64,000 bases of DNA, taken from the NCBI GenBank assembly GCA_017499595.2, contig CM038999.1, positions 1,488,001 to 1,552,000 of the forward strand, in the 5' to 3' direction. Both the position numbers and the translations under genes were made by a program. Source of the DNA: Psilocybe cubensis. Its lineage: Eukaryota. The notes under the pieces are model-generated. The model was not told the origin of the DNA. It made no database searches and worked only from the letters and a program-made list of their open reading frames with translations. Below, in pieces: positions 35,346-39,326 of the stretch; positions within the stretch are counted from its first letter, which is position 1, and each line of letters opens with the position of its first letter.

Positions 35346-36118
35346 ATGCCACACGCAGATTCATCCCTTGTTCCAGACAGGTCAGAATAGCGCAATATGG
35401 CAGTTATATTGAAAATGTCGGTTGACGATCACCTCTTAGTATCACAACTAAAGCTCAATTCTGGGAACACATCTACATTCAATTGGAAGGGCTACTGGAC
35501 GGTCAGAGGCATTGGGTATGCTGTTAATTATTCATCCATTAAATGGCGAATAAAATATCCTTTACAGGTTTCTAATACGGCCAATGCATCTTCCCTTATT
35601 TACAATTCCTTGCTCGCGTTTCCGAGATTTTTTGGAAAAGCAGATGATAAAGCGGTCAACTGGTGTGGTATGTCATTACTGTCCTAATATCCTTTTACTT
35701 GTTCTGATGGTTAAGCAAAGGTTTCTATATCGACTCGAACCTGTTCCCATCCCCTCGTTTCCCCAAACCAGTGTTCATGAACGACGCCAATAAACTGCTC
35801 CTAGGCCCGTTTTGCGGCAAACCTGCATGCCAATTCATTCAAACTGCCCCGGGAAAGGCTAAGGGAGTCTGTGCAGACGCGTATCTCAAACGAGAAACTC
35901 TGGTGGTGCCTGAGGTTGACCTTTATCCCGGGCACATAGCGTGCGACGGTGAAACCAAAAGCGAAATTGTCGTTCCTCTGATACATACAGCTGAAGGTAT
36001 AACTACCGTTCTAGGGGTGCTAGACCTTGATTGTCTTGCTGTCAATGGATTCGACGATGACGACAAATTTGGGTTGGAAAGAATAGCAAATTTGATTGTA
36101 AAATCGTGCAACTGGTAG
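35346..36118 (+). CDS. msrC: Free methionine-R-sulfoxide reductase (GAF domain, fRMsr / YKL069W family)
   Basis: MPHADSS start, VSNTANASSLIY, VNWC/GFY, LGPFCGKPACQ, GVC, YPGHIACDGETKSEIVVP and GVLDLDC. Confidence 0.93.
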
Positions 36119-36150: not shown

Positions 36151-39100
36151 CTAGTTAGCGTTGGTTTTCTGCCACGCAAGGAAATCCTCGTGTAATTTTG
36201 CTTGGTTTGTATATTCTTTTTGGACCTTCTTCGCCTGGTTTTTCGTCAATTCTTTGCCTTCACCGTCGGTGAGAGGGAGCCCTTCATCATTCCACGACGA
36301 ATATAATCCCTCTTGGACATTCGGGGGCTTAAACATCTCATGAGGAGGCACACGCCCCTTCTCAATTTTCTGGAGTCGTTTTTGGCGTTCTGCCTCGACA
36401 GAAGCTGCCTTCTTAGCCGCTTTTGCTTCCATCAATGCACGTTTTTCCTCTCTCGCCTTCATCAACTCTGCTGGATGAACCAATTTGACCAAAGCTTTGC
36501 CATCTAAATTATGGAAAACAATAGAAGTTAATAATAAACAACAATTGCTATGTTAGCGATATCACCTTCTTGGTCATCCAATGCGACGCCCACACTAACA
36601 AGATCGTTATCACGTAGTTTGTCGCACAGTGCAAGAATATCCTTCAGGGCATTGTCACCTTTAGCCATCGCCAGCTTTCGAACATTATCGCGGAATGATG
36701 ACAAGATCCTCAACGACGGCATCAGAATCTCTTCCCTCTGTAGAATGGAAAAACAATTATGCTGCGGTTATCTTTCGGAACTTCGGTTATGGGACATACG
36801 TTGGCATTTCCTCCAGCTTCGTCTAATTGGCCCCAACCAATTTCGGACTTCTCACCCTCCCCAAGGCCGAACATTTTCAACATCTTGCCAACCCAATTAG
36901 CGATATTTTCTACCAGTTTGACGTTGAGCGCTTTGCCACGATTATTGATGTATACGTTTGTTTTCGATACTAAATCACGGAGGACGTCTACTGCTCCCGG
37001 TGTATTGAAAGAATCACAAAGGTGTTCCCTGAAAGTCATTTGACTCTGATACAAACTACAATTGAACTATGAGTTGTGTTAAAAATAAGCGAGAACAATA
37101 TCATACGTTGATAATAACTCTTGCTCTGGTAGTTCGAAGTGATGTCGACCGTCAGATGCCACTTCTTCTGCGTTTGCTTGATATACGAGTGCCTTGACTG
37201 TGGTAAAAAAATTCTACAAGGTAGTGAGCAATTATACTACTACAACAACAACAACAACATATATCACTGACGTTGAGGGTAATCTCGAGGTTACGAACCT
37301 CCCCTGTCATCAATGCTTCGGAAAAGTCGACCTTTGAATTCCAGAGCTGAGTCAAAAAGGCAAGCCGTAATTGGCGAGCAGTAAACTTTTCCAAGATTTC
37401 CTAAGCAAATGTAATAAGTGAGAACCGTAATGATACCCTTTTTTTTAAAAAAAAAAACACGAACATCTATGGTAATGAAATTTTTCAATGATTTACTCAT
37501 TTTTAATCCTTCAATATGTAAATGGCCTGTGTGAAGGAAGTAATTAACCCAGGCTTTGCAGTCGTGGTAGGCCTGAAAAAGAATATACATGAATAAAATT
37601 TAATTGTTGCTGCAACAAGGAACCAGTACTTCGGATTGAGCCATCTCGTTATCGTGATGAGGGAAGGCAAGATCGATGCCCCCCGAATGAATGTCCATAT
37701 TGTCTCCAAAGATGGCGCTAGCCATAACGGAACACTCGATATGCCAACCTGGACGGCCAGGACCCCAAGGTGATGGCCATGATGGTTCTCCTGGTTTCGA
37801 TGCTTTCCACAGTGCAAAGTCAGCGGCCGATCGTCTGCCAGTTTTGCTAGCTAGTGACCCTGATGACTGAAGGTAAGAAATTGCGTTGATATGAAGAGAT
37901 AGATAGTACCTTCTCCCTCTTCAAGAAGATCCCGATTTCCGGTACTCCAGGGCTCTAATTTGGCATAGTTATGGTTTTCGGATTTGTCAAATGCGGGAGT
38001 ATTGAAGTATACACTTCCTTCCGACTCATATGCATAACCGTTCGATATGATGCGTTCAACAAAAGAGACAATTTCTGGCACATATTCAGTAACTCGTGTC
38101 ACTATATCAGGATCTCTGACTCTTAGGCGAGCCATGTCATCAAAGAATTTGCCTTCCCAAAAGGAGGCGAGCTTTCTGGATATAGCGGGATCTGTAACTG
38201 TAGACTTGAACTGAAGCAGTAAAGCAGTATTAGACGATTATACATAACGAGGAGTATGAACCAAACCTCAGCATCAAGACTCAGCACCAGTACATCCTTT
38301 GATGAGTCGATAAGTTGGTGAGCATGATTGCAGCTGACACTGCCATTTTCTAAATGAGATTTCGCAATATCGATGGCTTCCAAGGTGCGGCGCTACAAGA
38401 CGAAATTTGAGGGAAATCGGGTGTAATCGATGTCACGACTCACTGCTGCAGAATAATACATATCGAACTTTTCGTCCCTTTTCAGGCACTCTTGTTTCCA
38501 TGCTGAGTTTTGATAAGAAGCACATATTGTACGCCACGACTCCTCTTCCCGCCCTTCGATAATCTTCTCGTTTTCAGGTACACCTTTGTTGACGCGATTG
38601 CGAAGATAACTTGTCCAAGAGTTGCGGATTTTATCGAGGAGGGAGGGTGTCAAAGTACTCGTCTGAGATCTGAAAGTTTCCAAGATATGATTTTGACGAG
38701 CTCGTTCAATGATCTAGATGAGATAAAAAATGAAAATTACACTGTCAAGAGTGCCAACGGAAATTTCTACCTTGTCATCAATGTCCGTAACATTCATTAC
38801 AAATTGGACATCATAACCAAAGTAATCCGTCATAATGCGTCTGAGTATATCTTGAGTAACATAGTTCCTATGTAACAATAATTAGAACCAGAATTAAAGA
38901 CTATCTTTTTCCTGCACCTTGCATGTCCCATGTGCGAAGCGTCGTACACGGTGGGGCCACAATTGTACCACTTGACAAGTCGGCCATTTCGAGGAACGAA
39001 TTCAGTCTGCCGAAGATTTCAGGTGAAGGATGGCGACATCATAACGATGATATAACCTTAGTTCTTGTTAGAGAATTATACAGTCGTAATACTGGCTCTT

Positions 39101-39272
39101 CCGTTTCTTTCGCTGGAATGGACCATGGAGGTTGTTGCACGGACATTGTGGATAGTGTTCGAATCTTCTGACCGCTGAAAAAAAAAACGTTATTCACCGA
39201 TAGATGCTTGGCTGGTGGTAGTTTACAATGAACGCTGGCAAAGGCTCTAATCATTAAAAGGATAATCTTCAT
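36151..39272 (-). CDS. CRS1: Cysteinyl-tRNA synthetase (start at 39146, with in-frame upstream ATGs at 39254 and 39272)
   Basis: [27 protein letters not shown] (HIGH motif), [48 protein letters not shown] (KMSKS), LCDKLRD. Multi-exon. Confidence 0.96.
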
Positions 39273-39316
39273 TTTGCAGTCGGAGTCATTTCAATTTGCT
39301 CAACGTGTCATGAGAA

Positions 39317-39326
39317 GTCACGTGAC
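39317..39326. promoter_or_regulatory. Palindromic E-box (Cbf1-type GTCACGTGAC) in the CysRS promoter
   Basis: Perfect 10-bp palindrome GTCACGTGAC 45 bp upstream of the first CysRS ATG. Confidence 0.5.

Follow-up and report, generated by a model that had tools for sequence, protein, structure and literature searches.

A conserved in-frame presequence upstream of the annotated start suggests that a single cysteinyl-tRNA synthetase gene of Psilocybe cubensis serves two compartments

The window analysed here, a stretch of 64,000 nucleotides from Psilocybe cubensis, carries a cysteinyl-tRNA synthetase (CysRS) gene on its minus strand, with 13 exons separated by 12 GT-AG introns of 50–64 nt. The coding region as annotated occupies positions 36151–39146 (minus strand; stop codon at 36153–36151) and encodes 775 amino acids; its 12 joints are all seen in two RNA-type contigs. 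Joining the exons at these 12 RNA-supported introns gives 775 codons from the ATG at 39146, and 817 from a further ATG at 39272. The 775-residue model agrees letter for letter with the NCBI entry for a putative cysteine--tRNA ligase of P. cubensis, which starts at 39146. Pfam matches to the model comprise tRNA-synt_1e (PF01406; E = 7.6e-119, 397 bits, cutoff 27) and DALR_2, a DALR anticodon-binding domain (PF09190; 26.5 bits, cutoff 22). With the catalytic and DALR domains both present, the predicted product is a class I cysteinyl-tRNA synthetase. A convergent ORF of 113 amino acids lies next to the gene at 35777–36118 (plus strand), and its match to GAF_2 (24.4 bits) falls below the Pfam cutoff of 28.6. 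The RNA contigs extend past position 36000 toward this neighbour; hence, the two genes may overlap at their 3' ends.

Two contigs assembled from a single study, X1 and X2, each cross the CysRS gene with 12 GT-AG joints at introns of 50–64 nt, such that 12 of 12 coding introns have been removed. The underlying runs are not recorded as RNA; we count both contigs as RNA solely from these joints, which indicate derivation from spliced RNA. Two DNA runs, X3 and X4, span the same stretch of the gene without joints. At the 5' end of the gene, X1 is unbroken across 39057–39256. It includes the ATG at 39254, beyond which it extends only 2 nt, and everything between that ATG and the annotated start, unspliced. 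X2 is unbroken across 39057–39207 and ends short of the ATG at 39254. Contig ends are not transcript ends, and we do not take the missing cover upstream of 39256 as evidence of where transcription starts; contigs can also hide rare isoforms.

A first-pass annotation of this DNA had noted that ATGs at 39272 and 39254 read in frame, without stops, into the start at 39146, and had described the added peptide as basic, free of acidic residues and ending in an R-x-L-S motif. Both descriptions hold. There are zero stops between these ATGs, and the upstream reading frame is stop-free from 39290 (minus strand). From the ATG at 39254, the added peptide has 36 residues, including five K or R and no D or E, and its terminus, ...KIRTLST, precedes the internal Met. 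The coding stretch of this presequence spans 39147–39254 (minus strand), and consists of the ATG at 39254 (context TTAATGA, with T at −3) followed by 35 codons. The second in-frame start codon (39144–39146, minus strand) is the annotated and presumed cytosolic one; its context is CACAATGTC, where −3 is A. The 105 nt that separate these two ATGs contain no ATG in any frame, a property matched by 19% of shuffled sequences. The further in-frame ATG at 39272 (context AAAATGA) is followed by five codons (MKIILL; 39255–39272, minus strand) and sits 16 nt past the end of X1, the longest RNA contig. The presequence start in orthologues aligns with the ATG at 39254 and not with that at 39272. We judged targeting only from composition and conservation, which suggest that the longer form is imported into mitochondria; the R-x-L-S ending may mark the site at which the presequence is cleaved.

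Two promoter-type motifs that are conserved in relatives lie just upstream. The first, TGACTC (39283–39288, minus strand), is 34 nt upstream of the ATG at 39254 and resembles a Gcn4/CpcA site. The second, CACGTGA (39318–39324, minus strand), lies inside the palindrome GTCACGTGAC, and its CACGTG core is E-box-like. Within 100 nt upstream of the first ATG, TGACTC/GAGTCA is found in 14 of the 21 lineage groups defined below, compared with 0.91 expected from shuffles, and CAYGTGA in 12 of the 21, compared with 0.42 expected. Eight lineage groups have both motifs together, and the carriers among relatives include loci L001, L005, L006, L007, L012, L023 and L040. Since these motifs are only 8–70 nt from the first ATG, their position suggests that the mRNA leader is very short. 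The same region contains a six-codon upstream ORF (MTPTAK, then a stop; 39269–39289, minus strand), whose TGA overlaps the in-frame ATG at 39272. We considered and dropped a reinitiation-type role for this ORF. Short upstream ORFs are present in many relatives, with no common position or frame, and the ATG of the ORF in the window, at 39289, falls within the conserved TGACTC; hence, the ORF is probably a by-product of a motif that is conserved as DNA.

To see how the presequence is represented among annotated orthologues, we took the 120 best CysRS matches to the full-length protein, all of them from Agaricomycetes or unnamed organisms. The full-length query was used in place of the protein encoded by exon 1, since a search with the latter among longer proteins returned only three matches from 11 candidates. 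An N-terminal extension of 18–37 amino acids is annotated in 31 of these best 120 orthologues, and begins with MI or ML in 25 of the 31. The 31 extensions have on average 4.9 K or R and 0.29 D or E, as compared with an average of 2.86 D or E in the first 36 mature residues, and 23 of them have no acidic residue. The conserved internal Met (of MSVQQPPW) stands directly after the extension in 27 of the 31. The extension of Gymnopilus junonius is 36 amino acids long and starts with MIR, as in the window. The remaining 89 of the best 120, P. cubensis included, have models that begin at the second Met and lack the presequence; as the window shows, annotation from the second Met can hide the extension.

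We also scanned metagenome contigs with the first exon, and identified 57 fungal loci, 54 of which carry further CysRS exons. From these we kept sequences in which an upstream in-frame ATG lies 15 or more codons ahead of the internal Met, giving 35 distinct sequences (34 loci and the window). The loci left out were 14 duplicates, seven in which our pattern did not find the internal Met (L036, L046, L052–L055 and L057) and two in which an upstream in-frame ATG is missing (L056 and L044, the latter cut off by the end of its contig). Several of the seven loci lacking a placed internal Met still have a basic upstream stretch. In the more distant loci L036, L046 and L052–L055, this stretch is kept and the conserved internal Met is out of place or absent, and these loci may use a different start arrangement. 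The 35 sequences fall into 21 lineage groups; the grouping is crude, and the loci are not phylogenetically independent. Across the 21 groups the extension is 23–48 codons long, and in 15 of them it has no acidic residue. The orthologous extensions begin with MI or ML at the place of the ATG at 39254. In 34 distinct metagenome loci the upstream frame is open, with an in-frame ATG and an extension. A stop-free upstream frame would by itself be weak evidence of coding. Because the frame is conserved across species, comparison argues that the presequence is real, and the region is conserved as protein.

The gap between the two starts is free of ATGs in any frame in 28 of the 35 sequences, compared with 11.0 expected from shuffles, and in 17 of the 21 lineage groups, compared with 7.0 expected. 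At −3 of the first ATG, 13 lineage groups have T and three have C, such that 16 of 21 have a pyrimidine there; in the window, −3 is T at the first ATG (39254) and A at the second (39146). Of the 21 groups, only 10 have a purine at −3 of the second ATG, and a strong second AUG is therefore not common to these relatives in general.

We conclude that this one nuclear gene probably yields both the mitochondrial and the cytosolic CysRS from two in-frame AUGs, without splicing. Initiation at the AUG at 39254 would add the 36-residue mitochondrial-type presequence, initiation at the AUG at 39146 would give the 775-residue cytosolic enzyme, and no splicing would occur within the presequence. The leader would be very short, and the first AUG would be weak, with U at −3 and a position close to the cap; hence, many scanning ribosomes would leave it unused and, with no further AUG over the next 105 nt, initiate at the AUG at 39146, which has A at −3. 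Shifts of the transcription start near 39254 may contribute to the choice. We hold with about even confidence that, within this two-AUG design, leaky scanning is the main selector; we chose it because the ATG-free gap and the −3 pyrimidine at the first ATG match the layout described for Cryptococcus. Two features count against simple leaky scanning. A −3 purine at the second ATG is confined to 10 of the 21 lineage groups, and the ATG at 39272, which is in frame and in good context, would capture ribosomes if it were transcribed. The suggestion in the first-pass annotation that one gene makes mitochondrial and cytosolic isoforms thus survives in part: a conserved, acid-free presequence between in-frame ATGs probably does give two forms, whereas the splicing that was proposed to switch between them is not borne out by the evidence given below.

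This layout is already known from dual-AUG, dual-localized tRNA synthetases, and the window adds no new mechanism. In Cryptococcus, dual-localized aminoacyl-tRNA synthetases, including CysRS (CNAG_06713), are described as having a first AUG in poor context and, downstream of a predicted targeting sequence, a strong second AUG (Wallace et al. 2020, PMC7049704). According to the same account, the contexts of the annotated AUGs share an unfavourable U at −3, ribosomes occupy both starts and commonly leak past AUGs that are weak or close to the cap (PMC7049704). The P. cubensis gene resembles the Cryptococcus CysRS gene, as described there, in coming from a basidiomycete and in having a first AUG with U at −3, an acid-free presequence, an in-frame second AUG with A at −3 and no AUG between the two. 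It differs in having an additional in-frame ATG (39272) and a six-codon upstream ORF immediately upstream, and in that relatives often have a weak −3 context at the second AUG. A −3 pyrimidine at the first AUG followed by an ATG-free gap, described earlier for Cryptococcus, extends over many Agaricomycete lineages. The practical outcome is a correction of the start: the public model begins at the second ATG, 39146, and omits the conserved presequence, such that the probable mitochondrial isoform is absent from protein sets.

We considered a variant within the two-AUG design, in which the choice of transcription start alone sets the isoform, with little leaky scanning. Transcripts that include the ATG at 39254 would then give the mitochondrial form, and transcripts starting between 39254 and 39146 the cytosolic form. 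The Saccharomyces cerevisiae genes CRS1, HTS1 and VAS1 are described as working in this way (PMC7600831, PMC9604717). As the first-pass annotation had noted, a single CysRS gene, CRS1 (YNL247W), supplies both compartments in yeast by means of alternative transcription starts; the two transcript classes include a long one that is under the control of Hap1, and the long form bears the targeting sequence (PMC7600831, PMC9604717). Our proposal shares with the published description of CRS1 a single CysRS gene for both compartments and a targeting sequence on the long form; unlike the two transcript classes reported for yeast, the features in the window suggest that ribosomes bypass a weak first AUG while scanning. 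Several observations fit a choice between transcription starts, namely the conserved promoter-type motifs that lie merely 8–70 nt upstream of the first ATG, the lack of a −3 purine at the second ATG in 11 of 21 lineage groups, and the different ends of the two RNA contigs (39256 and 39207), although contig ends need not be transcript ends. However, ATGs are scarce between the starts (absent in 28 of 35 sequences, compared with 11.0 expected), and a −3 pyrimidine stands at the first ATG in 16 of 21 groups; scanning from a first to a second AUG would lead one to expect both. We therefore regard start choice acting alone as a tentative, less favoured account, whose likelihood overlaps with that of the two-AUG design of which it forms part; the ratio of the two forms would be set by leaky scanning or by start-site choice.

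It is improbable that the extension is an untranslated leader, with the 775-residue protein as sole product and a mitochondrial CysRS encoded by another gene. The NCBI models of P. cubensis and of 89 of the best 120 orthologues do begin at the second Met, and Coprinus cinerea, also a member of the Agaricales, is reported to have two CysRS copies, one of them with a predicted targeting sequence (PMC7049704). However, 21 lineage groups share an open frame, an MI or ML start, a basic, acid-free composition and a junction at the internal Met, and an untranslated leader would not be expected to keep these features. In addition, P. cubensis has one entry among the best 120 matches, such that no paralogue of about 60% identity or more shows up there, which is a weak test of a second gene.

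The mechanism proposed in the first-pass annotation was a regulated intron within the presequence, with retention giving the mitochondrial form and splicing the cytosolic form. The segment in question (39175–39226, minus strand), which we read as coding, is 52 nt long and not a multiple of three; it starts with GTAAAC and ends in a run of ten T residues followed by CAG. Its GT..AG ends are real, and its length is within the 50–64 nt range of the gene's own introns. An overlapping GT..AG pair with better signals (39168–39233, minus strand) is 66 nt long, a multiple of three. Splicing-based dual targeting has been described for tRNA synthetases, by exon choice for human LysRS and zebrafish HisRS (PMC7600831) and by trans-splicing for Trypanosoma brucei IleRS (PMC3273800). 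The mechanism first proposed for the window CysRS is of the same kind as in these reports; unlike the cases described there, the window has no junction in its RNA contigs, weak splice signals and a segment that is not conserved. If true, a splicing switch would be unusual for a fungal tRNA synthetase.

We trained donor and acceptor weight matrices on the gene's own 12 RNA-supported introns, a set that makes for rough scores. The 52-nt segment scores 0.15, compared with 1.25–18.9 for the real introns when each is left out of training and 13.3–24.0 when they are self-trained. Its donor, at −2.95, scores lower than those of all 12. We then scored GT..AG pairs of 45–70 nt within the coding exons as decoys, and nine of 110 score at least as high as the segment; across the whole window on both strands, so do 1721 of 8575 pairs of 48–66 nt. 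Thus, the segment has the GT..AG ends, the length that is not a multiple of three and the T run before CAG that had been noted, but these scores do not raise its likeness to an intron above chance. The 66-nt pair, with a score of 11.37, outscores all 110 exon decoys and falls below all 12 self-trained real introns. Neither the junction 39226/39175 nor the junction 39233/39168 is present in either of the two RNA contigs, although these have joints at all 12 of the other introns; contigs could miss rare forms; the 66-nt pair, like the 52-nt segment, is unspliced in X1. The absence of a joint across 39175–39226 in X1 and X2 is the simple two-ATG outcome that the first-pass annotation had itself set against its proposal, and leaves room for a minor spliced form.

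Comparison with relatives and the consequences of excision point the same way. The longest T run in the presequence region is at most five in the 34 relatives, compared with 10 in the window, such that the T run is missing in 34 of 34. A GT..AG pair of 45–70 nt whose length is not a multiple of three can be drawn in 27 of the 35 orthologous presequence regions, window included. However, we found no position or length shared by the best-scoring pairs among the 35 sequences, contrary to the idea that orthologues keep such an intron here. Conservation of the region as protein, with extensions of 23–48 codons across lineage groups, also speaks against an intron. Furthermore, the first-pass annotation had suggested that splicing leaves the shorter start alone, which it would not. 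Once the 52 nt are excised, an out-of-frame ORF of 50 or 44 codons begins at the two upstream ATGs, runs over the ATG at 39146 and stops at 39070–39068; because of this overlap, splicing should hinder the main start rather than free it. The 52-nt segment hence looks like a chance resemblance to an intron that is not spliced, and a splicing switch between the two forms is very hard to credit.

We think it highly doubtful, too, that a minority of transcripts is spliced at the T-rich end of the presequence in a condition-dependent manner, using either the out-of-frame 52-nt segment or the in-frame 66-nt pair (39233–39168). If this did occur, the weak intron would abolish the mitochondrial presequence or shorten it, and would constitute a species-specific layer of splicing above the conserved two-AUG design. 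The run of ten T residues (39178–39187, minus strand) lies within presequence codons (..VFFFS..), and accounts for the likeness to an acceptor. Its length is identical in the four runs X1–X4, with no insertions or deletions recorded, and a slip of one base within it would abolish the long isoform only.
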